From assembly GCA_040768165.1 (NCBI GenBank), contig JAXGNH010000005.1, positions 30,057-94,056 on the forward strand: a DNA stretch of 64,000 nucleotides, written 5' to 3'. Under the pieces are notes generated by a model. It did not search any database, was not told the origin of the DNA, and saw nothing but the letters and a program-made list of their open reading frames with translations. The DNA is from Anaerolineae bacterium (lineage in GTDB: Bacteria; Chloroflexota; Anaerolineae; UBA1429). Shown one piece after another: positions 39,084-64,000 of the stretch (positions are counted from its first letter, which is position 1; the number at the start of each line of letters is the position of its first letter). The translations under genes were made by a program, and so were the position numbers.

Positions 39084-39142
39084 GGTTCTCCCGGGTTCAG
39101 GGGCGGACGCCGCCGCCCGCCGTGATGGTGTGTGCGTGAGCC

Positions 39143-39979: not shown

Positions 39980-39981
39980 GA

Positions 39982-44643: not shown

Positions 44644-44656
44644 GGTACACGCCCCA

Positions 44657-44760
44657 GTGGGCGACCGGCCGGTCGCCCCTACGCAAACAGCCAGTCACGC
44701 ACAACCGTCCGGCCCGGAACACGGAACCCGCAACCCGGAACCCCTGTAGTCCGCCCCTAC
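44657..44760. repeat. GTAG-REP family 2 copy (44657-44682), AACCCG(G/C) heptamers, and a truncated REP overlapping a stop codon
   Basis: GGGCGACCGGCCGGTCGCCCCTAC; CGGAACACGGAACCCGCAACCCGGAACCC; GTAGTCCGCCCCTAC. Confidence 0.75.
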
Positions 44761-47700
44761 TCGGCGAACACCACCACCCGGTGGTTGTCGGAATCGGCCA
44801 CCAGCACGCGACCGATGGCGTCGACGGCGATGCCGGTCGGCAGGTTCATGGCGCCGAGGTCGGAGCCGTACTGGCCCCAGACGTCCACCACCGCGCCATC
44901 GCGGTCATACACGATGATGCGGTACCCCTCCGGGTCGGTGACGTACACCCGCCCCTCGTGGACGGCCAGGTAGGGCTTGTTGACCACCGACATGCCGTCC
45001 CAGGCCACCACCGGCCACTCGCGCTCAAAGGTGAGGTCGGGGCCAAACACCTGGATGCGCCGGTTCCAGGTGTCGGCCACGTACAGCCGCCCTTCGGCAT
45101 CCAGGGCGATCCCCACCGGCTCCTGCATCTGCCCCGGCTCGGCGCCCACGCCCCCCACGATGCCGAGGACGGTGCCCTCGGCGTCGTACTTGACCACGCG
45201 CTTGTTGCCCGTGTCGCTCACATAGAGATTGCCCTGGGCATCGTAGGCGACATCGCGCGGGCCGTAGAGGAGGGTGCCCGCGCCGCCGGCGTCCGCCTCG
45301 CCAAAGACGCCCCACGACCGCAGCCAGTTGCCCTGGGCGTCGAACACCTGGACGCGATGGTTCCAGGTATCGGCGACGGCCACCTCACCATCCGGTGAGA
45401 CGGCCACGCCCCACGGCTCGCTAAAGCGACCGACCTCGGCGCCCTGGCCCCCCCATTCACGCAGAAAGCCGCCGCTGGCGTCGAATACCTGGATGCGATG
45501 GTTCTGGCTGTCGGCCACATAGGCGTTACCGGCGGCGTCCATGGCGAGACCCTTGGGCGCGTTGAGCATCCCGGCCTGCGGGCCCTGAGCGCCCCATGAG
45601 GTGGTCGCCGTGCGCTGACGCCACTTTTCCAGGTACACGTCCTCGGGCAGCGTCTGCCCGGCGGTGAGGGCCTCCGGACCATAGTCCCACAGCTGTTGCG
45701 CCACGTCGCGGCGCACGTACAGCGCAAACTTGTGCACGTGGTACCAGTCGGTGAGCGGCTTTTCGTGCTTGCGGTAAAAGATCACGTCCCACAGCTTCTG
45801 ACGGCCCTCGGCGCTCGCGATGTCGCGCCAGAGCGACTGCGGCGTCATGCCCATGTACCAGTCCTGGTTCGGCCACCAGATGAGGCGGTAGTCGCGCCGG
45901 TAGTAGCGGTTGCCCAGGAAGGGCTTGACGGCCGACTCGTTGTCGGGGCCGACGATCACCGCCTCGGCGTCCATGGGGCCGCCGGGGGTCTTGCCGTAAA
46001 ACTGGGCATTGGTGAAATCGCGCAGGTACCACACGAACGGCCAGCTCGAGCTGTCGTCGTAGGCCACCTTCATGCTCAGGTCGCCGTACAGGCGGCGCGA
46101 CATGTCCTCCAGCTCGCGCGTGACCAGGGCCGTGTCGGGCGTCCCCTGGGCATAGACGATGAACTCGTTGGCCAGGTCGGGGTTGATAAAGGTGGCCATC
46201 CAGGCAAAGCGCACCGTGAGGGCCAGTAGCACGACGAGGCCGCCCAGGGCCACCATGCGCCAGGCGTCGGCGCGGGCGAGGCGTCGCAGGACAGCGGCGA
46301 TGGCCACCGCCACCAGCAGCCCGACGACCAGCGCCGTGACCCAGCCCATGGTCGCGTTCAGCGCCTCGATGCTCGTACCGCCCGAGGGGCGCAACCCGAC
46401 GAGCCGCGCGAGCACATAAACGAACAGCGGCGCCAGTAGGAGGAGCCACAGCCCGCCGCGCTCGCGGATCCCCCGCCAGTCGGCCTCCAGGAGGCGCCCC
46501 AGCGTCCACCCCGCCAGGAGGTGCAGCGGGATGGCGAGCTGCATCATGAGCCAGGGCATCTTTTCGCCGGCCCAGCTATAGAGCACGAACGCCGTCCACG
46601 TCCAAAAGATGAGAAAGGGGACGAACGGTACCGGCGCGTGGGCGCCGGAGGTCGGGTTCGCCGGTTGCGCCGCCGCTTCCGCTACCTCGGGCTCGGGCGC
46701 GGCCGCGCCCGAGGCCGCCTCATGGGGGACGTCGTCGCGAGCCACCGCGCGCCGGGGAAAGCCCAGGGCGTGCGCCACGGTCCCCGCCATCCCCAGGGCG
46801 AGGGGCAGGAACTCGTACATCGGCATGAGAACGAGATAGTAGTACCAGGGCTGCCCACCGCGCTGCTCACCGTGCTGCGACAACCAGTAGCCCAACGACC
46901 CGATCATGCCGGTGGCAAAGCCCTTGCCGTTGGTGAGCATGGTGGTGTAAAAGAGGATAAAGATGACATAGAACACGCCGGCGCACACGCCCCAGCGCCG
47001 CGGGTTCCACCACAAACCGATGGCAATCGAGATCCCCAGGACCGCCAGGAACACCGCCCCGGAAAAGATGATCCCCTGCTGCGAATAGTCCACCGGGTCG
47101 CCGCCCAGCAGCGCGATGGGAAAGGGCGACGCCAGCGGCAGGATGAGGGTGCCCAGGACGACGACCAGGTCGAACAGCGCCGAATCGTCCCAGGGACGCG
47201 TCCGTTCGCGCCACGACTGCGCCAGGAGCATCAGCCCCAAAAAGCCGCCAAAGATGGCGTAGGTGATAAAGGTCGTCTCTTTGGTGGTGAACCCCAGGGC
47301 GAGGGCCGCCGCGGCGATGTACAGGTCGCGCGCCCTGCGCTTGTCGAGGTAGTGCAGGATGGCGATGAACAGCACCATGTTGAACACGAGGTTGAACTGG
47401 TCGTGCCGGATGAAGCGGCTGCGGTGCATCAACACCGGCGACACCGCCATGAGCAGCGTGGTGGCGAGCAACCCCTTGGTGCCCAGCCACTTGCGCAAGC
47501 CGAGGGGGAGGATCGTCAGGGCGATGCCGAAAATCGCGGCCCCCAGCCGTCCCGTCACGTCGTTATCGCCAAACAGGGCAAAGACGACCGCCGTAAAGTG
47601 ATAGGCAAAGGGGCCGTGATACACCGGACTGTGGGTATAGCCCTGCCCCGTCACCAGCTTCCACGACTCCCAGGCATGGATGCTCTCGTCGTGCGAGTAG

Positions 47701-47846
47701 GCGCGGGAGCCTAGGTCCCACAGGCGCGTCAACAGGATGAAGGCGATGAGCGCGACATAGAGCACTCCGCCCCAGGTGATGCGTACCGTCCCAAAGAGGG
47801 GGCGGTCGAGAAAGCCGGGCCTCTCGGAGGCGATGACACGACTCAT
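44757..47846 (-). CDS. TIGR03663 (Agl23-like) GT-C membrane protein fused to a C-terminal NHL-repeat beta-propeller
   Basis: HDESIH, YHGP, SRFIRHD, TKE, AGEKMPW; NHL repeats YVADSQNHRIQVFD, VADTWNHRVQVFD, YVSDTGNKRV; ATGA coupling to the upstream gene. Confidence 0.85.
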   Translation of the reverse strand: MSRVIASERPGFLDRPLFGTVRITWGGVLYVALIAFILLTRLWDLGSRAYSHDESIHAWESWKLVTGQGYTHSPVYHGPFAYHFTAVVFALFGDNDVTGRLGAAIFGIALTILPLGLRKWLGTKGLLATTLLMAVSPVLMHRSRFIRHDQFNLVFNMVLFIAILHYLDKRRARDLYIAAAALALGFTTKETTFITYAIFGGFLGLMLLAQSWRERTRPWDDSALFDLVVVLGTLILPLASPFPIALLGGDPVDYSQQGIIFSGAVFLAVLGISIAIGLWWNPRRWGVCAGVFYVIFILFYTTMLTNGKGFATGMIGSLGYWLSQHGEQRGGQPWYYYLVLMPMYEFLPLALGMAGTVAHALGFPRRAVARDDVPHEAASGAAAPEPEVAEAAAQPANPTSGAHAPVPFVPFLIFWTWTAFVLYSWAGEKMPWLMMQLAIPLHLLAGWTLGRLLEADWRGIRERGGLWLLLLAPLFVYVLARLVGLRPSGGTSIEALNATMGWVTALVVGLLVAVAIAAVLRRLARADAWRMVALGGLVVLLALTVRFAWMATFINPDLANEFIVYAQGTPDTALVTRELEDMSRRLYGDLSMKVAYDDSSSWPFVWYLRDFTNAQFYGKTPGGPMDAEAVIVGPDNESAVKPFLGNRYYRRDYRLIWWPNQDWYMGMTPQSLWRDIASAEGRQKLWDVIFYRKHEKPLTDWYHVHKFALYVRRDVAQQLWDYGPEALTAGQTLPEDVYLEKWRQRTATTSWGAQGPQAGMLNAPKGLAMDAAGNAYVADSQNHRIQVFDASGGFLREWGGQGAEVGRFSEPWGVAVSPDGEVAVADTWNHRVQVFDAQGNWLRSWGVFGEADAGGAGTLLYGPRDVAYDAQGNLYVSDTGNKRVVKYDAEGTVLGIVGGVGAEPGQMQEPVGIALDAEGRLYVADTWNRRIQVFGPDLTFEREWPVVAWDGMSVVNKPYLAVHEGRVYVTDPEGYRIIVYDRDGAVVDVWGQYGSDLGAMNLPTGIAVDAIGRVLVADSDNHRVVVFAE

Positions 47847-49636
47847 GGCGTGGAACTCGTCCTTTGCGTTGCTTGGGCGACGCCGGGGGCCTGGACCCAC
47901 ACGTGGAGGTACGATCGCTCCACCTCACCCACCGGCACGCGATACAGGAACCAGCGCAGATACTCCCGAATGGCAAGGGGCTGCTCGGGCCACGTCTCGG
48001 CCAGGATGAAGCGCTGCCCGACATAGCCGGCCGGCCCGGTTTCATCCGCCCCATCGGCGGTGACCAGCACGGTGGCGCCCGAGGCCGCTCCGGGCGCGCC
48101 CACGCCAACACCCCGCTCCCCGCGCGCGGCGGGGTACTCGCGCAGGTACCACCCGGCCCAGGGGTCCAGGTCACGCTGGTAGGACGCGTCGAGGGCGTGC
48201 CGGTCGCCCGTCATGCGGTCGGAGAGGAGGGTCAGCAGCGCCTCCATGGCGCGCCCGTCGGGCAGGATCGCCCGCCCCACCAGGGGCTCGCGCGGGTCGC
48301 GGGCCGTCTGGTACGCCACGGCGGTGGTGGCGCGCACCGTCAGGCCAACGGCCAGCAGCGCGAGCACGATGGCGCCGACTCGCGCCGCCTGCAGCGGCTG
48401 GCCCCACAACCAGAACCCGACCCACGCCAGCACCAGGGTGCCGATCACAAAGAGCCCATAGATGAGGAAGGGTTGCTGCGTGGTGTGCAGCCAGGCGGCG
48501 ATCTCGAGCAGGGCAAAGGCGCCCAGCGCCAGCGCGACCACCAGCGCCGCGGCGTCGGCCCAGGTCACCCTCCCGCGCAGGGCGCCCCACAGGTAGGCGC
48601 CGCCGCGACCCGCCAGCACCACCAGGGGCAGGAGGACATCGAGCAGCCACTCTGGACCGCGGTGGCCCAGGAGCGTGCCCAACACGAGGGCCAGCGCCGC
48701 CCACGCCACCAGGAACCGATCCAGCGGGTCACGACGCCGCAAGCCGACGATTGCGCCCACCACGGCCAGCCCCAGGGTGAGGAACTCGTACGTCAGGAGC
48801 GCCACCGGCAGCGCGCTCCAGGCCGGCCCAGACGCCGCGGGGACCAACGCGGCGAACCAGCGCCACGCCAGGTTCGCCGCCGCACCAATGCCGCCCGGGT
48901 TGATCCAGAGGGCGCTCCCAACGCCTAGCAGGACGCCCGCTACGACGATCAGGTTACGGGGCGACGCCGCGCCGACCCCCAAGCCGCGCAGCCGCGCCGG
49001 CCCCAGGATGGGATGCTGGCGCGCCCAAAGAACGGCCAGGGCGCCGGCCGCCAGCAACGGCGTAAACACGGTCGGACCGGCCAGCAGACCGAGGCCAACA
49101 GTCACTGCGACGAGGCGGGCGTCGGAGGGCAGGCTCGTCTGGCGGTACCGGTCGACGGCCACCAGCAGGGCAGCGGACAGCGCGGCCGCCATGATGGGCC
49201 AGTGGTTGGCCCGTGAAAAGAACACCCAGCTCGGCGCGAACGCCAGCAACGCCGCCGTCACGAGGGCGGCGCCGCGCCCTACGGTGCGGCGCGCGGCAAA
49301 CGGGAGGGCCACCAGGCCGGCGCCCACCAGCGCCGGCAGGAGGCGCGCCGCGCCGTCCGTGGCGCGCGTCAGGTAAAAGAGGAGCAAGTTGGCGCCAAAG
49401 AGGAGCGGCGAGTAGGCCTCGGGGCGCCACACGTCTCCCTGCGCCGCCCGCCAGGCGGCCAACGCCGTGTCCGCCTCGGGCAAGGAGAGGGGAAAGCGCC
49501 CCAGCGCCGCGAGGCGCACGCCCAGGGCCAGCGCGACCAGCACGGCATAGAGCGCCACCTCCACGGTGAGCCAGGGGAAGGGGCAGGTATCGTAGCCGCC
49601 CTCCCGTTCGATTGCCTCGCGTTCCTCGACGATCAT
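47843..49636 (-). CDS. TIGR03663/GT39-like polytopic membrane protein, catalytically degenerate paralog
   Basis: VALY...VRLAALG..PL..EA, ARLLPAL, P.WVFFSR, LLTYEFL, WYLREY; lacks DE and HGP. Confidence 0.7.
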   Translation of the reverse strand: MIVEEREAIEREGGYDTCPFPWLTVEVALYAVLVALALGVRLAALGRFPLSLPEADTALAAWRAAQGDVWRPEAYSPLLFGANLLLFYLTRATDGAARLLPALVGAGLVALPFAARRTVGRGAALVTAALLAFAPSWVFFSRANHWPIMAAALSAALLVAVDRYRQTSLPSDARLVAVTVGLGLLAGPTVFTPLLAAGALAVLWARQHPILGPARLRGLGVGAASPRNLIVVAGVLLGVGSALWINPGGIGAAANLAWRWFAALVPAASGPAWSALPVALLTYEFLTLGLAVVGAIVGLRRRDPLDRFLVAWAALALVLGTLLGHRGPEWLLDVLLPLVVLAGRGGAYLWGALRGRVTWADAAALVVALALGAFALLEIAAWLHTTQQPFLIYGLFVIGTLVLAWVGFWLWGQPLQAARVGAIVLALLAVGLTVRATTAVAYQTARDPREPLVGRAILPDGRAMEALLTLLSDRMTGDRHALDASYQRDLDPWAGWYLREYPAARGERGVGVGAPGAASGATVLVTADGADETGPAGYVGQRFILAETWPEQPLAIREYLRWFLYRVPVGEVERSYLHVWVQAPGVAQATQRTSSTP

Positions 49637-49704
49637 GACGCCTCGCGTCGCTCCTTCGATCGCACCGTCACCACGCGCCGCCGGCTGCCGCGACGCCGGC
49701 CACG

Positions 49705-49713
49705 ATTATACCA
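49705..49713 (-). promoter_or_regulatory. Extended -10 promoter for the TIGR03663 pair
   Basis: TGGTATAAT (TGn-TATAAT) about 70 bp upstream of ATG 49636. Confidence 0.55.
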
Positions 49714-49743
49714 TAGACTCCCCCGCGCCGCCCCAATCGCGCC

Positions 49744-49859
49744 GCAGAGCGGAAGGATGGAACGCGGATAAACGCGGATTCTACGGATTTACGCGGATAC
49801 TCTGTATTTCTTCTGATCCGCGTCCATCCGCGGCATCCGCGTTCCATCCGCTCCTCTGC
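49744..49859. repeat. CGCGGAT 9-mer long-hairpin element
   Basis: GGATGGAACGCGGAT(AAACGCGGAT...) and ATCCGCGTTCCATCC arms. Confidence 0.8.
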
Positions 49860-49866
49860 ATCGGGC

Positions 49867-52302
49867 TCATCGCTCAAAGAGGATGACGTCGCCGCTCTCG
49901 TAGACGCGCGTCATCAGCCGGTCGAAAGCGTTGACCTGCCCTTCGGACAGGCGATACGTGGTGCGCTCCAGCGGCCCGACGAACACATAGTCGACGCCGT
50001 ACACGTCCAGCAGCGCCGCCCTGCGGCTCAGGTCGCTCGACTGATAGATGGCAGCGATGTCGGGCTCGCGGCGGCCGGGCTCGTCATAGTTGCCGCGCCA
50101 CTGCAGCTCGTGGCCGCCCCAGCCGAGCAGTGTCGGCACGCCGCTGTGGGCCGACACCCAGTTGTACTCCGAGTAGGAGCCGCCGGTGGCCTCGAGCATC
50201 ACGGCGCCGGGGCGGGCGTTCTGCCGCAGCCACCGGATGGCGCCATAGACGTCGGGTTGCCCCTCCGCCACGTACCGCGTGCCGTCGAGGGTCGGCCGCC
50301 CGCTGAAACCGTTCGTCTTGCTCGCCGAGGCCGCCAGCGTATAGCTGAACCCCGCCGCCACCACCAGCACCGAGGCGGCCGCCCAGGCGATGCGGGCGTA
50401 GCGCCCGGCCGGCGTCGCCCCGCGCCAGGTGGCCACCACGGCGTGGACGCCAAAGGCGGCGCCGATGGCCAGCAGCACCCAGGCCTGGTAGTAGAACTTG
50501 AACACCGTGTTCATGCGCGTGCCAAAGGTGTCCCGCAGAAAGGCGAACTCGGTAAAGGTGGTGAGGAGCACCCCTGCCGCCACCATGAACAGCGCCAGCA
50601 GCGAGCCGCCATCGAGGCGCGTGCGCCCCGCGTCCTCGCCGTCGGGGCGCGCCCCCCACAGTCCCAGCGCCGCCGCGACCGTGGCGATGGCAAGCGTCAG
50701 CGCCGCCGTCCACCAGCCCCGCACGATCGAGGCGAGCATCAGCCCACCGCACAGCGCCACAGCGACCTCGGCAGCCAGCGGCAGGCGCCGTTCGCCTCGC
50801 GACAGCCGCAGGTAGCGCGCTACCTGCACGCCCAGCCAGCCCGTCACCGGCACGAGGAGGCCGCCGAACATCAGCAAGTACTGGTGGGGGCGCGTCTTGA
50901 TCTCGCCCACCCAGCCGATGCCGCCCGCCTGGGAGCGAAAGCCGAGGTAGAACGGCAGGTACAGCCCGATGCACAAGGCGCTCAGCACCGCCCCCAAGAG
51001 GACGGTGTCCGCCAACCAGCTACGCGGCGCGGGGCGGTCGAACTGGCGACGCACGGCGTACGCCACGAGCACGAGCCCCACATAGATGGGCATGTCCCAG
51101 GTGTTCAGGAACCCCAGCGCGCCGAGGAGCAGGCCCCACAGGGCGAGGTCGCCCGCCCCGCCGGGCCAGAGGGCGCGCGCCCCGCGGCGCAGCCGGCCGA
51201 GCCACGAAGCGAGGTCGCCCGACAGGGCGTCGGTTGCGCCCCCCGCCGGCGCCGTCGCATGTCCGACGCTCAGCAGCACGTTGAGCGCCAGCGCCAGGAC
51301 GAGCATCACAAAGGGCAGCGCCAGCACGTGGGGGTGGACGTCCCCCAGCAAAAAGCTAAAGAAGGGGAACTCGCTGATGACCTCGTTGTAGCCGCCACCC
51401 GGCAGGCGATCGTGGATCACGCGCGAGGCGCGCCACCACCACCAACCGTCGGTAGGGTACCAGGTCGGGCTCGGCGGGGTGGCCCCCAGGTTGCGGACGT
51501 CGAGCCAGCGCCACAGCGCCTCGGAGCCCCAGCCCCGGGCGCGGATTAGCTCAAAGACCCCCTCCAGGTTGCCCACGGCGACCACCAGCAGCGCCGCGAG
51601 GATGCCCGTCCGGGCGGCGGCCCTTGTACCCAAGGCGGCCTCCGAGGGCGCCCCCAACGCGCCCTCCAGCGCCCCACGCCGCGCGCGGTAGGCCGCCACC
51701 ATGTCGTAGGTGAGGCTAAAGGCGGCGTTGGCGGCCAGGGCGAACAGCATCGCCACGGTGAGGTTGAACGTCACGTCGCTCGCCAGGCCCGACAGGCGCG
51801 TCAGCATGGCGACGATCACGTAGCCGAAATGGTAGTAGCTGATGGCGTACCCCGAGAGCCAGGGGTCGCGCGGGGGGAAGGTGCGGCTGCCCAGGATGCC
51901 GTTGATAAAGCCGAACTCCATCGGTTTTTCCGTGGCGGCGATCTCGGGGTTGTAGGCGCGCAGGAAGGACATGGCGACCAGCGCGACCAGAAAGAGCGCC
52001 TCGGTGGTCAGGATTAGGCGACGCTGCCGCTGCAGGAACGCCCACAGCGCGCGCCCCTCGCGGCGCCAGGCAACCAACGAGAGCGCGCCCAAGAGCGCCA
52101 GCGCCACCAGCGCCCCCGCGACGGTGTTCTGCAGGATCCCCAGGGAGACGAGCATCCAAAAGAGGTACCCGCCCACCAGCAGGCCCACGTGCCGGGCAAA
52201 GCCGAGGCCGCGGTCGGGTAGGAAGCGCAGCAGCCGCAGCGTCAGCGGCAGGGCCAGGACGCCGACGGCCTGCAGAACCACCCACCAGATCAGGACCGCC
52301 AC
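49867..52302 (-). CDS. DUF2298 / Chlor_Arch_YYY (TIGR03662) membrane protein, single module
   Basis: TEKPMEFGF, PPRDPWLSG..SYYHFG, EFPFFSFLLGDVHPH, NTWD, RMNTVFKFYYQ, PTLLGW..HE.QWR; GAGGGGG RBS. Confidence 0.88.
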   Translation of the reverse strand: MAVLIWWVVLQAVGVLALPLTLRLLRFLPDRGLGFARHVGLLVGGYLFWMLVSLGILQNTVAGALVALALLGALSLVAWRREGRALWAFLQRQRRLILTTEALFLVALVAMSFLRAYNPEIAATEKPMEFGFINGILGSRTFPPRDPWLSGYAISYYHFGYVIVAMLTRLSGLASDVTFNLTVAMLFALAANAAFSLTYDMVAAYRARRGALEGALGAPSEAALGTRAAARTGILAALLVVAVGNLEGVFELIRARGWGSEALWRWLDVRNLGATPPSPTWYPTDGWWWWRASRVIHDRLPGGGYNEVISEFPFFSFLLGDVHPHVLALPFVMLVLALALNVLLSVGHATAPAGGATDALSGDLASWLGRLRRGARALWPGGAGDLALWGLLLGALGFLNTWDMPIYVGLVLVAYAVRRQFDRPAPRSWLADTVLLGAVLSALCIGLYLPFYLGFRSQAGGIGWVGEIKTRPHQYLLMFGGLLVPVTGWLGVQVARYLRLSRGERRLPLAAEVAVALCGGLMLASIVRGWWTAALTLAIATVAAALGLWGARPDGEDAGRTRLDGGSLLALFMVAAGVLLTTFTEFAFLRDTFGTRMNTVFKFYYQAWVLLAIGAAFGVHAVVATWRGATPAGRYARIAWAAASVLVVAAGFSYTLAASASKTNGFSGRPTLDGTRYVAEGQPDVYGAIRWLRQNARPGAVMLEATGGSYSEYNWVSAHSGVPTLLGWGGHELQWRGNYDEPGRREPDIAAIYQSSDLSRRAALLDVYGVDYVFVGPLERTTYRLSEGQVNAFDRLMTRVYESGDVILFER

Positions 52303-52357
52303 GCGTCACCCCCTCGCCATCCGCCGGCGACGAGACCCACGCATCTAGTCGGTGGTC

Positions 52358-52700
52358 TCGCACTGCGGGGGAGAACGGCCAAAGTCATCTCTACGTAGTT
52401 GGGAAGTCCCTTCTTCGTAGTGACGAGTTCATTCGTGCTTTTCGCGCTGCGAGGAAGAACGACTGAAGTCGTCACTACATAGGAAGGGATACCCTGCTTT
52501 GTAGTAACGAATTCATTCGTTCCTTTCGCGCTGCGGGGCAGAAAGACTGAAGTCGTTACTACGTAGTTGGGAAGCCTTTCCTTCGTAGTGACGAATTCAT
52601 TCGTTCCTTTCGCGCTGCGGAGGAGAACGACTGAAGTCGTCACTACATAGGAAGGGATACTCTGCTTTGTAGTGGCGAATTCATTCGTTTCTTCCGCGCT
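52358..52700. repeat. BIME-like array: 4 x 84-bp units (168-bp higher-order period) of two alternating GTAG-REP variants
   Basis: TCGC(G/A)CTGCG at 52358, 52442, 52526, 52610; AACGACTGAAGTCGTCACTAC alternating with GTAGTGACGAATTCATTCGTT. Confidence 0.92.
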
Positions 52701-52728
52701 ATGCGAGAGAGCGACCCAAGCCGTTCCC

Positions 52729-55700: not shown

Positions 55701-58700
55701 CGGTATAGTTGGCGATGCGGCTCCCCCAGCGATAAGGGGGCACGCTCGCCTCGGCGATCACGGGCGATCCCACCACGTTGTCCTGCAGCCAGGCGATGGC
55801 GCGCCGATCGTGCTCCAGGACGATCTCGCGGTTGTTGTCCAGGTAACGGGCGGAGGCCATGTAGGCGGCGCCGTCCAGACCGGGGCCGAGGGCGGGATCC
55901 CAGCGGTCGCGCACCTTGGCCGGGGCGGCGCACAGGGGGTAGAGGGACGAGGCGGCCAGCAGCCCGATGAGCAGGCCACGCCACAGGCGCCGCCCCGGCC
56001 TTGGCCACGCGGCGTGACGCGGCCACACCATCGCCAGCCCGGCCACGCCGGCGATGCCCCACACCACCCAGATCTGCAGGTAGAACTTGAACACGGTGTT
56101 CATGCGGCCGATGTCGCCCTTGATGACCACGTACTCGACGCCGATCAGGGCGGCGGCGCCCACGGCGGCCAGCAAGGCGGCAAAGCGCCCCTCCGAGGCT
56201 AGGCGGCGCTTGAGCGCCAGGGCGGTCGCCATGACGAGGAGGGGCAGCCCCAGGAGCAGGGCCCAAGATCCCGAGATGAGGGCCGCCAGCAGTAGCCCGA
56301 TGAGCGTCATGACGCCGAACACGCCCGCCTCGTATCCCAGGCCCTGGCATCGCACCAATAGGGCATAGAGGGCGCCGGCGCGCTCGCGCCCGCCGCGCGG
56401 CGCCACATAGACCCGCAGCGCCCGCGCCACGGCGCCGCGCGCCCCGCGCCCAAAGGTGGCCGTCCAGAGCGCCGAGGCGACAAGAAAGCCGGGGGTGGCC
56501 CAGATGATGAGCAGCGCGCCCAGGGGCGAGCGCTCCCCCTTCCACGGCTCCACGCTCGAGTAAGCGGAGCCGAAATGGGCATGGAACGGCCGATAGAGCA
56601 GCATAGTGAGGACCACCAGCACCCCCACCCGCACGGCGATGCGCTCCAAGAGCCGCTGGTCCAGACGCGGCCGCGCCGTCGTGACCGCGGTGTGATAGGC
56701 GCCCATGGCCACCGCCACCACGCCGATCCCCAGGTAGGTGGGCAGGTCCCAAGTGTTGCTGCACCACAGCGCCCCCAGCGCCAGCGCCAGCAGAGCCAGG
56801 CCGGGGAGCGGCCGGCCCACGGTTTGCCCGAGCCATCGCCGGGCGTCGGCGAGATACCCCCGCCACCCCACGGCCTCGGACGAGGGCGCGGCGTCTTCCG
56901 GCTCGCCTCCGGGCAACGCCAAGCCGAGCGCCGCCCCCAGCGCCAGGAGGGTGTAGGGCAGCGCCGTCAGGTGGGCGTGGAGGTCGGCGTAGAGAAAGGT
57001 AAAGAAGGGAAACTCGTTGATCTCGCCGTTGGTCATTACCCGCGTGGCGTTCCAATACCACCACTCGGGGCGGAAGGGGAGCCGCTGCCCCTCGAAGACA
57101 TAGCGCCACAGCCCGGCGGCGCAGCGCACGAGAAACGCCAGGCCGGGGATGCGACTCTCCATGACCACCACGCGCCCCAGCTCCTCGAAACCCCGCAACA
57201 AGAGCTGGAGTTCGCCCAAGTTCCCCAGTACGGCGACCATCAGCGCCCCGAGGATGCCGTAGCGGAGCGGGCGCGGCAGCCAACGCCCCGCTTCGTCTTC
57301 CCCTTCGGGAACCAGGTTGGTGACGACGCAGGCGGCGCCCGCCGCCGTCAGGGCGAAAAGGGTCGGCACGGCCAGGTTGTAGGCCACCGTGGGGACGATC
57401 CCCGTCAGCTTGATGAGGGTCGCCACGGTGGAGAGGCCGAAATAGTAATAGTTGATGTACCCGCCGGCGAACCATGGGTCGTACGGCGGAAGAGTCGTCG
57501 ATCGCAGGATGGCGTTCAGGTAGGCCAGGTCCATGGGCTTTTCGCCGCCCATGACGGGGTGCCACAGGTCCGGGTTCCCTCGGCGGATGAGCCAGAAGAG
57601 GAGGAACGCCGCCAGGAAGAGGGCCTCGCTCGCCAGCAGGAAGCGCCAGCGCCCGCGGAGGAAGGCGCCCATCGCCGCCCGCCGCCTCCAGGCCACGACG
57701 CCGCCGGCGGCGACCATCGCCAGGAGCAGCAGCCCAACGGTCAACCGCGTGTAGGGTGCGATCCCAACACTGGGCAGCAGCCAGGCGAGATAGCCGAGCA
57801 GCAGCACGCCGAGCGTCTTGGACAGGAGGTAGCCGCGGTCGCGCAGCCGCCGCAGCGCCACGAACCCCAGCGGGAACGCCGCGGCGCCCACCAGATAGAT
57901 GGCCAGCAGCCAGATGAGGGTCGGCGCGCGGTTCGCGACGGAGGCACGGTCGAACAGCTCGGACCAGGTGCCGCCGGCCCGCTGGATGGCCCAGGCGTCC
58001 TCCGGCAGCATGAGCATGTTGGGCGCGCCGGTCACCTGCACCGGCCGCATGCGCACCACGCGCTCCAGATCATAGCCGTCAAAGAGGGCGCGCACGCGCT
58101 CCATGCTGAAATCGGCGCTCTTTTTATAGATCGTCACCTTGGGGTGATCGTAGACCGTGAACGACTCGTCGGCGTTGTCGTCCACGAACTCGAACCCCAG
58201 GACTCTGGGGCGCGACGTGAAGCTGATGAGATGCTCGAACCCCAGTTCCCCCGAAAAGAGTGCCTCGTAGTAGCGCGTCGTCATGGGAAAGCGGTCGGGC
58301 AGGCGGGGGATCGAGCCGTACAGGCGATTGCTCGACATGATGATGTACTCGGCCTCGTCGAGCCACGCGTACAGCTTGTCCCGCTTTTCCGGGACGTCCT
58401 CCCAGTACAGCTCCATCTGGACCTGCCGGTACTCGTTGGGGGGCCAGAGCCCTCCCATGGGCAGGGGCAGAGGGTCGTCCCAGTACTCGAAGGTGATGGC
58501 CGAGCCCCTGGGGATGTGTTGATAGATCCAGCGCGACGCCGTCACGCGCGTCACCGGCCGGCTATAGATGCCGGTGAACGCCGCGGCCCAGATGGCGGTA
58601 CCGACCACCACCACCGCCACGATCGTCCCCGCCAGCGGCCGTCGCCACGCGGGCGGGATGATCGCCCGCCGCCCCGGGCGTTTCGCCCGATCCCAGAGCG

Positions 58701-60078
58701 CCACAAGGCCGTACGCCGCCACGAGCGCCATGGTGGGATAGATGGGCAGCAGGTAGCGCATCGGCTTGACGAACTGGATGCTCTGGTAGAAAAAGGTGAA
58801 CGACATCCACGCCCAGGGGAGGAGGTGCTGCCAGCGGCGGCGCCGCCACAACTCCCACGCCATGAGCCCCCAGCCGGCCCACACGGCCAGGCCCAGCGGC
58901 AGCCCCTGGCCCCACAGCACGAGGTTCTGAAGCATATAGAGCACCGGCGCGCGGTCGGTCCACTGGTGGCTGGGGGGATAGTCGCTCTCGCCGCTCATCA
59001 GCCGGGCGATGCCGGCCATGTCCTCCTTCCACTGGGGGTTCAGTCGCAGCCCCAAGAACCCCGGGCCGGTGAACGCCTGGGGTTGGACGATGCGGAACAC
59101 CAGCGCCGCCAGGACGAGCACGGCCACGATGGAGAGCGAGGTGCGCAGAAAGAGCAGGGTAAAGCGCTCGGCCGGCGACGGCGGGGGACAGGCCGCATCG
59201 GCGTCCACCGTCAGCGAGACGCGCAAGCGCCCCACGCGGCCGCTGGCGTCCACGACGCGCCCGCCGGAGGCCCCGTCATCGCCTCGGCGCCACAGCGTCA
59301 GGGTGCGCAGGGCGTACGCCAGCGCGATGACGCCGATAAAGCTCAGCACACTGATCTTGGCCGACACCGCCAGGCCAAAGGCCAGCCCCAGCAACAGAAT
59401 GCTGCCGCGCCCCTCCCCCTGCGCCACGCGCACGGCGGCATAGAGCGCCAGCGTCACAAAGAAGGTCGTGGTGGTGTCCACGGTGAAATAGTGCGACTGC
59501 TGGATACTCAGGACGCTCAGCGCCAAAAAGAGCGCGCCCAGCAGCCCCACCCGTGGGCCGTACAGCCGCCGCCCGATGGCGAACACGAGCACGATGCACA
59601 GCAGGTCCATGACGGCCGACATGGCCCGCCCCGCCAGGTACACGCCGTCATAGCCCGTGCGCCCCGTGACCTGCCCGAGGAACTTGGCCAGCACCACCGG
59701 CGACAGGCCATACACGTAGCTGCCGTGCTGATAGTTGTAGGGGTTCAGGGGGTTCTGCGCCGTGTCCCAGTACTGCCCCAGCGAGGTGGGCCACTGCAGG
59801 CTGTTCTCCACCATGGTGAGAAAGCGCTCGTCGGGGTGGAGGTGCTGCCCCTCATCCCAGTTCAGGCCGGTGAAGCGCAGCACCGCGCCCAGCACGACGA
59901 TCAGCGCCAGCCACTCTAGCACCAGCACGCGATCGGACGTGGTGGCGGACACGCGCCGCCCGAGGGTGGCCAGCCGTTGGGCCAACTGCCTCAGGGTCTG
60001 CCGCACGCCGCCCCACGCGGGCGCGCGGGCGGGCTCTGCCTCCCAGCGATGGGGTTCTGTGGGCACGCGTTCCGTCAT
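52729..60078 (-). CDS. Giant 2449-aa membrane protein: GT39/PMT-like module plus two DUF2298 modules
   Basis: LHPDERFL; twice GGEK.M, PPYDP.FAGGY.NYYY, NEFPFF.FL.ADLH.H, NTWD, RMNTVFKF, TGLPT, YVG.LER. Confidence 0.88.
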   Translation of the reverse strand: MTERVPTEPHRWEAEPARAPAWGGVRQTLRQLAQRLATLGRRVSATTSDRVLVLEWLALIVVLGAVLRFTGLNWDEGQHLHPDERFLTMVENSLQWPTSLGQYWDTAQNPLNPYNYQHGSYVYGLSPVVLAKFLGQVTGRTGYDGVYLAGRAMSAVMDLLCIVLVFAIGRRLYGPRVGLLGALFLALSVLSIQQSHYFTVDTTTTFFVTLALYAAVRVAQGEGRGSILLLGLAFGLAVSAKISVLSFIGVIALAYALRTLTLWRRGDDGASGGRVVDASGRVGRLRVSLTVDADAACPPPSPAERFTLLFLRTSLSIVAVLVLAALVFRIVQPQAFTGPGFLGLRLNPQWKEDMAGIARLMSGESDYPPSHQWTDRAPVLYMLQNLVLWGQGLPLGLAVWAGWGLMAWELWRRRRWQHLLPWAWMSFTFFYQSIQFVKPMRYLLPIYPTMALVAAYGLVALWDRAKRPGRRAIIPPAWRRPLAGTIVAVVVVGTAIWAAAFTGIYSRPVTRVTASRWIYQHIPRGSAITFEYWDDPLPLPMGGLWPPNEYRQVQMELYWEDVPEKRDKLYAWLDEAEYIIMSSNRLYGSIPRLPDRFPMTTRYYEALFSGELGFEHLISFTSRPRVLGFEFVDDNADESFTVYDHPKVTIYKKSADFSMERVRALFDGYDLERVVRMRPVQVTGAPNMLMLPEDAWAIQRAGGTWSELFDRASVANRAPTLIWLLAIYLVGAAAFPLGFVALRRLRDRGYLLSKTLGVLLLGYLAWLLPSVGIAPYTRLTVGLLLLAMVAAGGVVAWRRRAAMGAFLRGRWRFLLASEALFLAAFLLFWLIRRGNPDLWHPVMGGEKPMDLAYLNAILRSTTLPPYDPWFAGGYINYYYFGLSTVATLIKLTGIVPTVAYNLAVPTLFALTAAGAACVVTNLVPEGEDEAGRWLPRPLRYGILGALMVAVLGNLGELQLLLRGFEELGRVVVMESRIPGLAFLVRCAAGLWRYVFEGQRLPFRPEWWYWNATRVMTNGEINEFPFFTFLYADLHAHLTALPYTLLALGAALGLALPGGEPEDAAPSSEAVGWRGYLADARRWLGQTVGRPLPGLALLALALGALWCSNTWDLPTYLGIGVVAVAMGAYHTAVTTARPRLDQRLLERIAVRVGVLVVLTMLLYRPFHAHFGSAYSSVEPWKGERSPLGALLIIWATPGFLVASALWTATFGRGARGAVARALRVYVAPRGGRERAGALYALLVRCQGLGYEAGVFGVMTLIGLLLAALISGSWALLLGLPLLVMATALALKRRLASEGRFAALLAAVGAAALIGVEYVVIKGDIGRMNTVFKFYLQIWVVWGIAGVAGLAMVWPRHAAWPRPGRRLWRGLLIGLLAASSLYPLCAAPAKVRDRWDPALGPGLDGAAYMASARYLDNNREIVLEHDRRAIAWLQDNVVGSPVIAEASVPPYRWGSRIANYTGLPTIIGWDWHQKQQRAALSSEMVDWRLLDLRNLYNVRDTEYALQMLRRYQVGYIYVGELERAYYDAEGLDKFDAMVGSALEIAYQDGPVTIYRVIGSGAREVAAAPASASPADAETPPSPLTAIGAWISRHWVPSAVHAQEPAVPERPGAEDPAPTPEPLMLDGPVESLPTVNNRGWNPLAMGSTAGAILVWWAVALLLGAIAWPFLATALPHWADGGYGLAKGVGLLLVGYPVWLGASLRLLPNTVAVAWGVLLLVGVAALALWRRRRSTLAETWRRCRRLMLVEEGIFSLAFAAFLALRLLNPDLWQPWFGGEKMMEMAILNAVTKSAHMPPYDPYFAGGYLNYYYYGHFLTGILAKLVGVAPEVAFNLAVPTFAALTAAGAFAVGYHLAPRETRLRPWSGAAAVALLMVIGNLSGIVQVVEQLGQVGGATLAGAPLGAGVGAVFTGLGRVLAGRAELPPFEYWYYATRIVPHTINEFPFFSFLFADLHPHMMNLPFTVAAAGMAAGLVGARERGVLSGALHAGLLVLTLGALGAINTWDLPAYLAVAGVALVYRGAVADGWRGAIGGAAQALGVALGALLLYAPFYAHYRAQSLGLGLVAPGERSPLPDMAMIWGLLAFLVATLLVTWRVPRRAEGVVTATEGAPGEGPTSAPPRAASPSALVPRGALLGLTGAGIAGGAAAPMAGLDSGTWTLALLATLAFVACVQWAASWDDANLFIRRTFLLAGVAILAGIEVFYLRDFLDGSEWRRMNTVFKFSLQAWVLLSLAAGAALPALWRRAGDWGRAASAPWRGALVLLLAGSLVYPVMAVPVRVNERFPEADAPRWTLDGTAYMHDARYAWPDEEHVIELAHDRAAIAWLWENARGTPVIAEAPLGFYREGGLRVSSYTGLPTLVGAHQREQRPWQQVNPRERDAEAVYTTTDPAALMELLGRHDVRYVYVGQLERIAYGEGGASTLEALAREGRVERVYRNDKVDIYEVPAEASA

Positions 60079-60082
60079 GCGC

Positions 60083-62124
60083 CTATCGTTCTCCGTAGAA
60101 AGCTAGAAAGGCCGGCGTCCCATCGTACTTGGCGTGCGGCAACACGATACTGCGCGCAAAGGCGGCGCGCAACGTGTCCAGCGCCGCCGCGTCTTGCGGA
60201 TGCACGATCACCATGACCTTGCCGGGCCGCCCATCGAGGGGGGGCTCACCGGGCGCCAACTCCGTCAGTTCGATATCCCACTCTTCCGGCGTGCGGCCCA
60301 ACTGGACGCGCACGGCGTTGCCGTCGTACCAGTGGGGCGCCGTGAGGATGTAGGACCCGCCCGCATTGCCAAACGCCTCGATGGCGCGCGCCATCTCCAG
60401 CGAGATGGAATAGTTGTGGTCGGGCTGCTGCCAAACATAGTCGCGAAAATACGCGGTATACGTCGCTCGCGTCTCGCCCCCCAAGAGGAGGGCGGCGCCG
60501 ATAGCCAGCAGAGCGCCTCCCGCGCACCGCGCCACGGGACGCACCGCCGACATGGTCAGCGCCTCGGAAACGGCCGCGCCCAGCGCCCGCCGCGCCTGCA
60601 CCAGCCCCAGCGCCGCCAGCAGCATCGCCGCGGGCAGCGCCCCGATGGACCGCACCGCGCTCGGCACCTCGTGGGGAAAGGCCAGCGCCAGGATCGAGGG
60701 CAGGAGCATGACGCCCAGCCCGCTCAGGAGCGCCAGCCCGCCGTCGCGCCAGCGCCACAGGCAGCACCCGATCCCCAGCACGAAACCCACCGCCGGCACG
60801 AAACCGAGTTGCCGCAGGAAGGCGACGTTGGTCGTAAAGACGGCATCCCCCTCATAGGTGAACATCGCCAGGGCGCGCCCGGCGTTGCGCCCGAGTGTGC
60901 CGAGGAGGTCCCCCGGCAGGGGCTGCTCCAGATCGGTGAGGCGCGTCGCCACGCGATAGGTGTACTGGAACGGCTCGTCGTAGGCGTAGCGCGCCAGCGG
61001 GATCAGCACCCACGCCGCCGTCACCGCCAGCAGCGCCAGCCCCGGCCCGTGCGATGCCACCCTCCGCCATCCGCCGGACAGCGCCTCGTCCAGCAGGAGA
61101 AGCACCACCAGCAACGGCAAGACCATAGCCGCATTGTACGTATAAAAGGCCGAACCGAGAAAAAGCCCCGCCAGCGCATAGAATGTGCGGCCGCCCGTGC
61201 GCGTCGCCCGCGCCAACGACAGCCACAGGAGCGCCAACACCGGCGGCAGCACTGCGGCGCGATAGCCCATACGCGTCAGGATGACGTGCCAGTGGCTGAC
61301 GGCCAGCAGGCACGCCGCCACCAGCCCCACCTCGCGGTCGCACAGCTCCCTGCCCAACAGGTAGACGAGGGGCACCGTCAGCACGCCGATGAGCACCGCC
61401 GCCACCTTGATGGTCGTGTGGCTCAGGCCCATGACGGCGGCTAGGGGCGCCGCCAGGTAGAAAAAGAGCCCCTCCCTTCCCGGATGGGAAGGAAAAAAGA
61501 CGGGCAGCTCGCCGCTGAGGATCTGGCGGATGTTGTCATAGTTGTGGGGCAGATCGCAGCCCATCTCCAGCGGCACCTCGCCGATGCGGTAGAGCCGGAG
61601 AAAGGCCGCCAACGCCATGGCCGCCAGCAGCGCCAGGTGCCGCCAACGGACGCGAAAGCCGCCATCGTGCCAGCACCGGTGTAGCGCGTCCAGGGCGCGG
61701 CGCGCCGCGCCCCGCGGCCAAGCGGCCATCCCGAGGACGGCGAACCCCGGGAGCCACGTCACCAGCGCCAGGGCGCTGAAGCGGTTGCCGGCGAACCGGT
61801 AGAAAGCGGCCGCCCCGAGGACGGCCAGGCTGGCGAGGGCGGCGGTGTCGCGCGCCGTCCACGCCAGGCGGGGCGCCGGCGCGCCGCCTCCCGGCATACG
61901 CCCCGACAACGCCCGCCACGGGCGGCTCGCCGCCCCCATGGCCACCGCCGCCGTTACCGAGGCGCCCCCCGCGATGCCGGGGGCCAGGCGCCGGTCGAGC
62001 GCCCACTGGGCGAGCAGGGCCAGGGCGACGCCCGCGCCGGCGAGAGCACCGCGCAGGGCGGCCGGCGGGAGGAGCACTCGCCCGCGCCGCCCGCTGGTCG
62101 CTCTCGGTTCCCTCGCCCAGCCAT
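60083..62124 (-). CDS. GT39/ArnT-like (PMT_2) glycosyltransferase; start uncertain, probable frameshift near the 5' end
   Basis: LRLYRIGEVPLEMGCD, FF...PGREGLFFY, SHWHVILTRMGYR, YTY, PSAVR. ATG 62124 has a GAGGT RBS but is out of frame; an in-frame GTG lies at 62077. Confidence 0.7.
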
Positions 62125-62136
62125 GGGATGTCCACC

Positions 62137-64000
62137 TCACTCCAGCGGTTCGTAGGCCGTGAACAGGATGCCGCCCGCGGCGTCGCGAAATCTCGCGCAG
62201 CTCCCCCGCCGGATAGCGCCGCCGCACCGCCTCGATCTCGGCGGCGCGCTCGGGAAGCAGGACGAACACCGGCTCACCGTTGGCCGGCGGCAGCTGCGCG
62301 GGATCACTCAGCGGCTCCAGCACGTCCGAGCCCCGCAGGTCGCGCGCCAGGAAGGGGATGGTGGCGAACCCCAGGTAGATGCGTGGCGCCCCGAATAAGT
62401 AGCAGTAGCGCCCCGGCCCCAGGGAGCGCAGGTACAGGCCCACGCGGTGCGCCACCTCCGTGTTCGCGCCGCCATAGACGTGGGACGGCGTGTAGCGCCC
62501 CAGGTAAAAGTAGGCGCTCTGACAGGTGATGAGCGTCACCACCACCAACGATGCCGCCACCGCTTCGGCCTGAGAGCGCCCCAACGCCCAGCGCGCCAGG
62601 GAGGAGACCTCCACCGCACCCAGCGCCACCATGATCGCCACGGGAGGAATCGCCAGCACGAGTCGGGCGCTGCTCGGCGGGTTCTCCAGGAGTGCCCCCC
62701 CAAAGACGATCACCAGGGCGATCCAGGCCACGAGCAACCCGTACTCGGCCCGGCGAAAGCGGCGCGCCGCCACCACCAGCCCCACGCTAAAGAGGACGGC
62801 GGCGGCGAACCCCAGGAGCGGCACCCCGGGCCGGTAGTGAAACGTGGGATCGGGGAAAAAGTGGAACGCCAGCGCCGCCTTGAGGAACTGGGTCCCCATG
62901 ATGCTCAGCGGCGTGCGCCCCGTGCGCTCCGCCTCGGTGGCGAGGGCATCGTTGGCCAGCATGCTGGTGAGCTTCCAGCGGGCCGTGAACAGCTGCGGCG
63001 CGGTGCGAAAGTGGGCCAACAATGGGAGCGCCGCAACCAGCGCGCAGAGCGCCATCACTGCCAGCAGGGGGGCCGCCCGTCGCCAATACCCCGTGTCGCG
63101 CCGCCCTCGCAGCCAGAGCCCCACGAACAGCACCAGCGGGATGAGGCGCGCCCCCATGTAAAAGTACCACGCCATCCCCAAAAAGACGCCACCCACGGCG
63201 GCCAGCGCCGGCCGCCGCTCGTCCACCCCCCACAGGCTCAAGTAGAGGGCGCCCAGGGCAAAGAACGGGTCCCAGATGTTGTTCAGCGCCAGGCGCCCAT
63301 AGTGGATGGCATAGTGATAGCCCGCAAAGAACAGCGCCGACAGGCCCGCCACCCAACGGCCGAACCAACGGCGCGCCAGCAGATACAGGAGCACCAGCGT
63401 CGGGACCGCCACCAGCGCCGAGGGGAGGCGTAGCGCCGCCACCGTCACGCCGAACAGCCGCAGCGAGGCGGCCTGCAAGAAAAAGTAGAGGGTGGGGTGC
63501 GAGAGCCAGCCGGTGATAAAGGGGTTGGTGCGCGTGCCCTCCATGACGCCCACCGCCTCCAGTCCCATGGAGGCCTCGTCGCCCGACAGGACGTAGGGGA
63601 TCGTCTCGAGACGCACGACGCAGCAGGAGCGCCGCCAGCGCGACCCGTCACCAGCGCCGCCTCCCGATGCCGGAGCAGCGCCGCTGCCGTCCCTCGCAGG
63701 CGCGCCGGCACGGTGCGCCACGACACGAGGGCCCCCACGGAGAGCCACCGCCCCCGCCCAGATCGCCAGCAGGTCCCAGCGCGGGGCATCCACCGGCCGC
63801 GCCGAGGCCATGGCGGCCGCATAGGCGCTCGCCACCGGCGCGGCGAGCATGGCAGCCGCCCGTAGGCGGCTGCGGCCGAGCAGCCTCCAGAGCTGCGCCA
63901 CGAACCCCTCCGCTGGCGCGGGCCGGGGCGCGCCCGCCTCCCGGCGCGTCATGGCCGCCGCCAGGAGCCCACCCGCCGCTAGGTAGAGCACGATGCCGTC
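62137..64000 (-). CDS. GT39/ArnT-like (PMT_2) glycosyltransferase, 5'-truncated by the window, with apparent indels
   Basis: IPYVLSGDEASMG, NPFITGWLSHPTLYF, LRLPSA, IHYGR, YFYMGAR, PPSSAR; natural end ELRE/FRDAAGGILFTAYEPLE* at 62137 needs a 1-nt shift. Confidence 0.72.

Follow-up and report, generated by a model that had tools for sequence, protein, structure and literature searches.

In the mycobacterial pathways for phosphatidylinositol mannosides, lipomannan and lipoarabinomannan (PIM/LM/LAM) and for arabinogalactan, the action of the GT4 enzymes PimA and PimB is followed by flipping and then by the GT-C enzymes PimE, MptA/B, Emb and Aft. The three-component systems (GtrA/GtrB/GtrC, ArnC/ArnT and CsbB/GtcA/YfhO) follow a logic of GT2 synthase, flippase and GT-C enzyme. 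This work concerns a co-oriented gene array for nine GT-C-type modules in Anaerolineae bacterium, most of which lies in a stretch of 64,000 nucleotides (the window; positions 30057-94056 of the 344-kb contig JAXGNH010000005.1, in a genome of 5.1 Mb in 68 contigs, 95% complete with 8% contamination). The G+C content is about 70%, and homologues of the proteins in the window carry the labels Anaerolineae or Chloroflexota. The array is not categorically new, as GT-C enzymes, pathways that use several of them and the logic of lipid-phosphate sugars are already established. As a works-like analogy only, it resembles the mycobacterial pathways in combining a cytoplasmic GT4 and a flippase-like step with a large number of GT-C enzymes that would act on polyprenyl-phosphate sugars outside the membrane, and AftA, AftB, AftD, EmbA/B and PimE are among the fold matches of its DUF2298 and B models described below, but it has no orthology to those pathways. 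The three-component logic is shared as well, with ArnC/GtrB-like GT2s encoded in the genome, but here the GT2 lies outside the array, the flippase-like protein is of the LPG_synthase_TM/TIGR00374 type and not GtrA, and there are nine GT-C modules instead of one.

We propose, with a probability of roughly 0.68 for the whole of this reading, that the array is an extracytoplasmic glycan assembly line of nine GT-C-fold modules that depends on polyprenyl-phosphate sugars, and that it is a vertically inherited, near phylum-wide operon of Chloroflexota. On the minus strand, from 44757 to the end of the window, five long open reading frames (ORFs), A to E, are present as assembled, all of them polytopic, with 10-36 hydrophobic segments in a Kyte-Doolittle scan. 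Family scans (Pfam, NCBIfam) and all-against-all BLAST resolved them into eight GT-C-type modules within the window (A, B, C, D1, D2, D3, E1 and E2). An earlier reading of this DNA from its letters (the sequence-only reading) had described a >19-kb co-oriented array of about eight GT-C-like modules in polytopic membrane proteins, comprising a GT39/ArnT-like pair, a GT39 fusion with two DUF2298 stretches, a single DUF2298, a degenerate TIGR03663-like gene and a TIGR03663-NHL gene, and the family scans, folds and hydropathy agree with it in each of these respects. It had also pointed to synteny beyond base 64000, but had missed the further array genes that lie there and encode a methyltransferase, a GT4 enzyme, a flippase-like protein and the ninth GT-C module. 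The features are as follows, with module and residue (aa) positions where they apply; positions of F to I are those of locus L001, to which 60000 is added to obtain window-equivalent positions.

A, 44757-47900, minus strand: 1047 aa; TIGR03663 at 283.3 bits against a cut-off of 126.25, PMT_2 at 51.6 bits.
NHL beta-propeller of A, 44760-45662, minus strand: about aa 747-1046; Pfam NHL at 161 bits, 5 repeats; PDB NHL domains matched with E-values to 1e-57.
B, 47843-49636, minus strand: 597 aa; divergent TIGR03663-like protein, 71.3 bits, below the cut-off of 126.25.
C, 49867-52302, minus strand: 811 aa; stand-alone DUF2298/TIGR03662 'YYY' module; DUF2298 at 373.3 bits, TIGR03662 at 521.2 bits.
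D, 52729-60078, minus strand: 2449 aa; PMT_2/PMT N-terminus and two DUF2298/TIGR03662 stretches; TIGR03662 at 1101.6 bits, DUF2298 at 746.8 bits.
D1, 57979-60078, minus strand: first module of D, aa 1-700; PMT_2 at 47.2 bits and PMT at 39.3 bits, both above cut-offs; motif H-P-D-E-R.
D2, 55159-57933, minus strand: second module of D, about aa 716-1640; DUF2298, 31% identical to C over D aa 720-1553.
D3, 52729-55158, minus strand: third module of D, about aa 1641-2449; DUF2298, best TIGR03662 stretch at aa 1648-2443, 31% identical to C over 888 columns.
E as assembled, 60083-64105, minus strand: 1340 aa with two PMT_2 modules; its ATG lies 105 nucleotides (nt) past the window end.
E1, 62137-64000 in the window with its ATG at window-equivalent 64105, minus strand: PMT_2 at 53.5 bits; motif G-D-E-A; fused in frame to E2 as assembled.
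E2, 60083-62140, minus strand: about 685 aa in the window frame; PMT_2 at 47 bits; invariant first-loop Asp at E aa 851.
Single extra base, 62191, no strand: fuses E1 to E2 in the window assembly.
F, L001 4116-5090, same strand as the array: class-I S-adenosylmethionine (SAM) methyltransferase.
G, L001 4981-6147, same strand as the array: GT4 glycosyltransferase.
H, L001 6161-7279, same strand: LPG_synthase_TM/TIGR00374 flippase-like protein, TIGR00374 at 75 bits against a cut-off of 43.
I, L001 7368-9590, same strand: ninth GT-C module, PMT_2, 30% identical to D1 over 675 columns.

The order along the array is lepA, I, H, G, F, E1, E2, D, C, B, A and sucCD, with a span of about 24.8 kb; lepA adjoins gene I on the upstream side, and sucC and sucD lie downstream of A. 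Junctions between array genes are short or overlapping, E and D being 4 nt apart and F and E 10 nt; the exceptions are B and C, which are preceded by gaps of 230 nt and 426 nt, respectively. In a scan of 44400-53000, the stretch that covers both of these longer gaps, no promoter-like sites were found, and terminator-like sites were at chance level (5 seen versus 3.5 expected).

All module types show a GT-C fold or a GT-C family match. I, E1, E2, D1 and A were all above the PMT_2 gathering score, E1 and E2 in separate scans of each module, and D1 was above that of PMT too. In each type of module, the first external loop, which follows the first transmembrane (TM) helix of the core, has a conserved acidic residue, and this bears out the acidic motif after an early TM helix that had been noted from the sequence: in modules and proteins from related loci, H-P-D-E-R is kept in 27/27 D1/I-type orthologous modules and the first-loop Asp in 16/16 E2-type orthologues, while E72 of A-type orthologues is found in 36/36, E125 and D146 of DUF2298 in 58/58, and E54 of B in at least 90% of 34 alignment rows. 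Judging from the fold, these conserved loops would face outward. The array modules are thus like the PMT_2/ArnT/PMT enzymes (GT83, GT39) in their PMT_2 scores, in a first-loop DE or D and in the superposition of B on ArnT, but unlike them they are fused to or placed beside DUF2298 and have no solved-structure relative by sequence; for instance, a comparison of E and I with PDB sequences found nothing relevant.

The array is built around its DUF2298 modules, of which there are three. Both C and D scored above the cut-offs of TIGR03662 (Chlor_Arch_YYY, 300.25 bits) and DUF2298 (27.8 bits), and more than 4,163 DUF2298 homologues were found at an E-value of 1e-10 or lower among the matches listed; matches in the ESM Atlas were DUF2298 clusters only. 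In an alignment of 58 rows, which includes D2 and D3, the residues E125, M128, D146, Y156, Y157, E311-P313, D321, H323, H325, N400, W402, D403, E585, R596-T599 and K602 are invariant in every row, and D3 keeps all of them. Two motifs of the C-terminal domain, T-L-D-G, which comes after the last helix, and G-W-x-x-H-E-x-Q-W-R-G, are nearly invariant in the same rows, with some positions fully so. The AlphaFold2 model of C built on this alignment reached a pLDDT of 91.9 and a pTM of 0.94. With Foldseek, AfAglB (7e9s) led at an E-value of 5.6e-8, followed by DPY19, STT3, ArnT, AftA and PglB, and GT-C entries led down to an E-value of 1e-2. A search independent of Foldseek (VIA) placed AglB (Z 14.3) and STT3B (Z 14.0) ahead of ALG12, Pmt1/2, Pmt4, ArnT and AftA, and its top 11 full-length rows were all GT-C (Z 14.3-11.3). 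The GT-C core of the model begins at helix 94-116, with three helices ahead of it, and aa 676-811 form a mixed alpha/beta soluble domain of the AglB/PglB type at the C-terminus. This domain matched the soluble C-terminal domains of the STT3 family, namely 3vu0 (AglB-S2; Z 11.1, root-mean-square deviation (rmsd) 2.8 over 115 residues) and 3aag, 5aza and 2zag (Z 9.0, 7.2 and 6.9), which are soluble domains of AglB, PglB and P. furiosus STT3. Although a Z of 14.3 for DUF2298 is within the range (about 14) that helical models can reach by chance, the top rows, all GT-C, and the four separate soluble-domain entries that match aa 676-811 speak for a true relationship of the modelled DUF2298 fold to GT-C.

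Compared with AglB/STT3/PglB (GT66), DUF2298 is alike in its best full-length fold matches, AfAglB and human STT3B, in the soluble-domain matches of C aa 676-811 (AglB-S2, PglB and P. furiosus STT3) and in the conserved acid of the first external loop. Its conserved D-x-H-x-H, which lies just before the fourth core helix, may by its position correspond to the DxD/DxH metal site of PglB and AglB. In contrast, DUF2298 has no sequence or profile similarity to solved chains, three extra N-terminal helices and invariant motifs of its own (YYY, WWWWRA and RMNTVFKF), and WWDYG, searched as WWD[YWFN]G, occurs in 0/58 rows. No match of C to Pfam STT3 or NCBIfam STT3 was found at an E-value of 0.01 or lower, and the 58-row profile found no oligosaccharyltransferase in the PDB.

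A is a member of TIGR03663, the Agl23 family, by the NCBIfam cut-off. Its GT-C module (about aa 48-631) carries the motif H-D71-E72-S, and D71 is kept in 33/36 A-type orthologues, in which the H and HGP positions are conserved too. A C-terminal NHL beta-propeller is fused to this module and, because it is positioned after the last TM helix, would be extracytoplasmic. B matched no Pfam family, and its first-loop acid is the single E54, with no DE pair in the 34-row alignment. Nevertheless, the AlphaFold2 model of B built on those rows (pLDDT 90.2) reached a Z of 26.9 with both AglB and ArnT (rmsd to ArnT 3.6 over 421 residues; Foldseek E-value for ArnT 7e-7), and its top 20 rows were all GT-C. 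Since the first unrelated row was at a Z of 8.0, the modelled B is a bona fide GT-C fold. DUF2298 and B, the module types to which Pfam assigns no GT-C family, both modelled as GT-C, in line with the GT-C folds that the sequence-only reading had supposed. Haloarcula hispanica Agl23 is described in the parts of PMC11182771 that deal with it as a putative hexose-P-dolichol flippase that works with the GT2 Agl22 in S-layer glycoprotein glycosylation; in the same account, purified Agl23 moved M5GN2-PP-lipid in proteoliposomes, and Agl23 rescued yeast rft1. A shares its family with Agl23, from which it differs by its NHL propeller; B does not reach the family cut-off, and no GT2 is adjacent here.

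The conservation of the array was followed in 79 loci around relatives of C, taken from species-representative genomes (the best 80 matches to C, not a random sample), in which stop-to-stop ORFs were placed in classes by our own phmmer classification with the window modules as queries. All 79 loci are labelled Chloroflexota (Anaerolineae, Caldilineae, Thermoflexales, Dehalococcoidia and 'Chloroflexia'). A TIGR03663-type gene lies downstream of C in 43/58 loci with at least 2.5 kb of downstream sequence, and an A-type gene in 27/46 loci with at least 7 kb of flank, 23 of the 46 having NHL. Upstream of C, the PMT_2+DUF2298 fusion was found in 32/48 loci with at least 5.5 kb, and among 40 loci with at least 9.5 kb upstream there were E-type genes in 16, the methyltransferase in 12, the GT4 in 11 and the flippase-like gene in 8. 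The order D-C-B-A recurs in Anaerolineae, Caldilineae, Thermoflexales and metagenome-assembled genomes labelled 'Chloroflexia'. Dehalococcoidia loci (L031, L038, L041 and L048) have a reduced set, C and an A-type gene without NHL, and all of them except L048 have the flippase-like gene (3/4). Housekeeping flanks recur as well, lepA upstream in 4 loci and sucC downstream in 7 distant loci, which points to a stable chromosomal neighbourhood.

Co-occurrence was counted in 201 Chloroflexota genomes that are at least 90% complete; the tallies include two unpublished genomes, G026 and G161, in which both families are present and whose omission would shift each count by at most 2. DUF2298 was matched in 148/201 genomes (136 at an E-value below 1e-30) and TIGR03663 above its cut-off in 132/201. 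Both families were present in 130 genomes, DUF2298 alone in 6, TIGR03663 alone in 2 and neither in 63, so that their presence or absence agrees in 193/201. PMT_2 and DUF2298 stand in one polypeptide in most of the genomes sampled, which argues for a shared task, and this fusion together with the tight co-occurrence of TIGR03663 argues for one pathway served by the array. The order of the genes and their presence or absence are thus co-conserved (79 loci; 201 genomes), as the sequence-only reading would have it. Among 14 control genomes, both families matched only in Haloferax volcanii and Methanosarcina acetivorans, which extends the likeness of A to Agl23, with TIGR03663 and DUF2298 together in haloarchaeal and methanogen controls. 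These two archaea, and the resemblance of DUF2298 to AglB/STT3 down to the C-terminal domain, support the archaea-like character that had been attributed to the locus.

The number of genes depends on the assembly in one place. As assembled, there is no stop between the two E modules, and the array reads as five ORFs in the window rather than the six genes that had been claimed. However, the G+C content of third codon positions (GC3) falls at E aa 601-690, and the conserved hydrophobic C-terminal signature that E-type proteins share is found for E1 in the +1 frame, ending with TGA at 62137-62139. When contigs of four public runs (X1, X2, X3 and X20; three DNA studies and one metatranscriptome) were aligned on 61600-62800, the base at 62191 was absent in the contigs of 4/4 runs, exactly at the required frame shift. 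Because of this absence, E1 and E2 are two separate genes in these other assemblies and the window assembly is the outlier; the claim of six genes is biologically right once base 62191 is removed. In addition, the window differs from all four run contigs by a net +4 nt at 62068-62111, and altogether five small indels in 125 nt (62068-62191) separate it from them, which suggests local assembly errors or a strain variant. E2 in the other assemblies probably starts a few codons downstream of the E1 stop. It is 48% identical to the single E-type gene of locus L012. E2 also has weak, sub-threshold STT3 matches (TIGR04154 archaeo_STT3 at an E-value of 4.9e-6 and 25 bits against a cut-off of 450, over E aa 845-913; Pfam STT3 at an E-value of 0.013). 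A metatranscriptome contig that spans 61941-62207 gives a weak hint of expression of the E region. Near-identical DNA to 61600-62800 was found in 20 public runs from 14 studies, and their labels (anaerobic digester, bioreactor, sludge, biogas fermenter and soil metagenomes) indicate a widespread population of engineered ecosystems.

The absence of a GT2 from the window, noted from the sequence alone, holds for the whole 344-kb contig: the genome has 30 GT2 matches, none of which is on it. Four of the GT2s, on contigs C12, C23, C19 and C8, are sized like polyprenyl-phosphate sugar synthases, have C-terminal TM helices and match ArnC, PgfS, AglJ or dolichyl-phosphate hexose transferase models. 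One of them (C12:138366-139361) matched solved ArnC at an E-value of 7e-67 and GtrB at 1e-39 over its full length, with TM helices at the C-terminus. By sequence, these are candidate ArnC/GtrB/AglJ-like polyprenyl-phosphate sugar synthases elsewhere in the genome, of the kind that the sequence-only reading supposed carrier genomes to have.

A peptidoglycan-linked polymer as the universal product of the array was rejected, because the distribution of murG is discordant with that of the DUF2298/TIGR03663 pair. In the same 201 genomes (a tally that includes the unpublished G026, G158 and G161), murG was present in 177. Among the 20 listed genomes without murG, G043, G106, G129, G146 and the source genome have both DUF2298 and TIGR03663, and the pair is missing from the murG-positive families f11, f15, f21, f26 and f29, so that its presence is not bound to peptidoglycan. 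The source genome has only a weak murG-like match (TIGR01133, E-value 2.7e-10) together with a SEDS FtsW/RodA gene at C5:188586-189668, on the contig of the array, and its own murG is probably in an assembly gap. In the late 1980s, Meissner, Jürgens and Weckesser reportedly described, for Chloroflexus aurantiacus, a complex of peptidoglycan and a polysaccharide that contains O-methyl sugars; a literature search on the Chloroflexus wall polysaccharide found nothing relevant.

The assembly line that we propose would work as follows. On the cytoplasmic face, the GT4 enzyme G and the SAM methyltransferase F would draw on nucleotide sugars to build or modify a lipid-linked primer, and ArnC/GtrB/AglJ-like GT2s encoded elsewhere would load single sugars on polyprenyl phosphate. 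The flippase-like H would carry these lipids outward, and one or both of the Agl23-like proteins A and B may do so too. Outside, the PMT_2-type modules I, E1, E2, D1 and probably A would add sugars from polyprenyl-phosphate donors, while the AglB/STT3-like D2, D3 and C would perform a distinct transfer, and the NHL propeller of A would hold the acceptor. The invariant residues of DUF2298 itself (E...D...D-x-H-x-H) and its AglB-like C-terminal domain suggest that its reaction differs from that of the PMT_2 modules, and we favour either polymerisation or the transfer of the growing glycan to the final acceptor. The product would be an envelope glycoconjugate, such as a lipoglycan, a wall-associated polysaccharide or surface-protein glycans, and would not necessarily be tied to peptidoglycan.

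Several points weigh against this proposal. The catalytic activities of all modules are putative; GT-C folds that are not transferases exist, and PIG-U is among the fold matches of the DUF2298 and B models. DUF2298 has no sequence relative among PDB chains, either in a single-sequence search with C or with the 58-row profile, its full-length Z is near the chance range given above, and hhalign of the DUF2298 alignment against that of the B family gave no membrane-domain match (probability 8.5%). No donor synthase is encoded in the array or on the 344-kb contig (no PF00535 match on contig C5), a GT2 occurs in the 79 related loci as 1 weak case, and neither an identifiable acceptor nor a conserved acceptor protein gene was found among those loci. 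The synteny counts rest on best matches to C and on our own phmmer classes, and related genomes in the co-occurrence sample are not independent. Full-text literature searches on DUF2298, TIGR03662/TIGR03663 and PF10060/COG5427/IPR018746 returned no biochemical or genetic study of any protein of the array or of any DUF2298 member; in the neighbourhood table of PMC8756737, a DUF2298 gene of Chloroflexi is only listed beside PMT_2 genes, and literature matches to a 'YYY domain' were rejected since they concern the unrelated Y_Y_Y domain. An extracytoplasmic assembly line had already been put forward in the sequence-only reading; the GT-C folds, the co-conservation and the donor candidates favour that part of it, but its assignment of one sugar or linkage to each module is unsupported, PMC11182771 describes Agl23, the only TIGR03663 protein that has been characterised, as a flippase of lipid-linked sugars and not a transferase, and B has no DE pair.

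It is possible, although we do not favour it, that several of the modules are not transferases, A and/or B being flippases or scramblases of the Agl23 type or non-catalytic lipid-binding partners, so that the transfers would be well below nine in number. The score of A as a TIGR03663 member (283 bits), the flippase description of Agl23 with its proteoliposome translocation and yeast rft1 rescue (in the parts of PMC11182771 cited above), the position of B below the family cut-off with one acidic residue only, and the presence of a GT-C-fold non-enzyme, PIG-U, among the fold matches all fit this explanation. However, A has the canonical DE pair (E72 in 36/36) and the H and HGP positions, as catalytic enzymes of the PMT/ArnT type do, the array already has H as its dedicated flippase-like protein, and the assignment of Agl23 as a flippase comes from one laboratory line. 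Alternatively, the array could be a protein glycosylation system in which the PMT_2 modules, like Pmt in Actinobacteria, attach O-glycans to proteins that are secreted or lie on the surface, and the DUF2298 modules are oligosaccharyltransferases with a non-canonical acceptor motif, resulting in glycans on S-layer, sheath, pilin or archaellin-type proteins. We consider this rather unlikely, although the PMT/PMT_2 matches with a DE motif, the DUF2298 fold nearest to AglB/STT3 down to the C-terminal domain, where STT3 has its peptide-binding motif, and the retention of the DUF2298/TIGR03663 pair in the murG-less G043, G106 and G146 are what it would lead one to expect. Furthermore, the passages of PMC12488501 on Litorilinea aerophila (Chloroflexota) describe an archaellin with probable O-glycans at T66 and T145, for which the enzymes are not known. 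In contrast, WWDYG is absent from all 58 DUF2298 rows, C has no Pfam STT3 match at an E-value of 0.01 or lower, and an acceptor protein gene is not conserved at related loci. In addition, nine modules far exceed, to our knowledge, the number in known bacterial protein-glycosylation systems.

The genes could also be neighbouring paralogues with unrelated jobs, a by-product of the large GT-C expansion of this genome, in which PMT_2 is matched 30 times and is also densely clustered on contigs C12 and C18; the GT4, methyltransferase and flippase-like genes are found in just 8-12 of the 40 loci with long upstream sequence. We regard this as very improbable, because the order D-C-B-A recurs across classes, PMT_2-DUF2298 fusions are the rule, presence and absence agree in 193/201 genomes, and the junctions are short or overlapping (4 nt E-D, 10 nt F-E). 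As to the expansion beyond the array itself, 12 of the 30 PMT_2 matches are in a 67-kb stretch of C12 (102-169 kb), which includes the ArnC/GtrB-like GT2 mentioned above, and four are on C18 at 88-110 kb. A further DUF2298 gene, the fourth in the genome (822 aa, C21:79003-81471, equal to L088:2004-4472), lies between enolase and a class-I methyltransferase, with dnaN next. A methyltransferase adjoins C-type genes in loci L007 and L027 too, and the DUF2298-methyltransferase pairing may recur. On the same strand and downstream of the array, the window encodes succinyl-CoA ligase (sucD 42461-43363, sucC 43360-44643) and subunits of a 2-oxoacid:ferredoxin oxidoreductase (38526-41199).

What the Chloroflexota envelope consists of and how it is made are not settled, and where PMC13319060 describes its outer layers, a polysaccharide or protein nature is no more than 'suggested'; the array, as the glycan assembly line proposed here, is a concrete candidate for that machinery. 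It is found in about two thirds of the sampled genomes of the phylum, between housekeeping genes and around the large, unstudied DUF2298 family, and offers a test bed for the function of an STT3-like fold that has no WWDYG and for whether GT-C proteins of the Agl23 type are flippases or transferases. As a more speculative extension, which we hold to be doubtful, DUF2298 could be an unrecognised sister branch of the oligosaccharyltransferases in Chloroflexota and some Archaea that transfers lipid-linked glycans to acceptors other than a sequon (surface proteins, lipid anchors or wall polymers) and that, with the fused PMT_2 module and the two Agl23-like proteins as obligate partners, builds the outer envelope layers. 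If this were true, the array would be the core envelope-glycan machine of the whole phylum.

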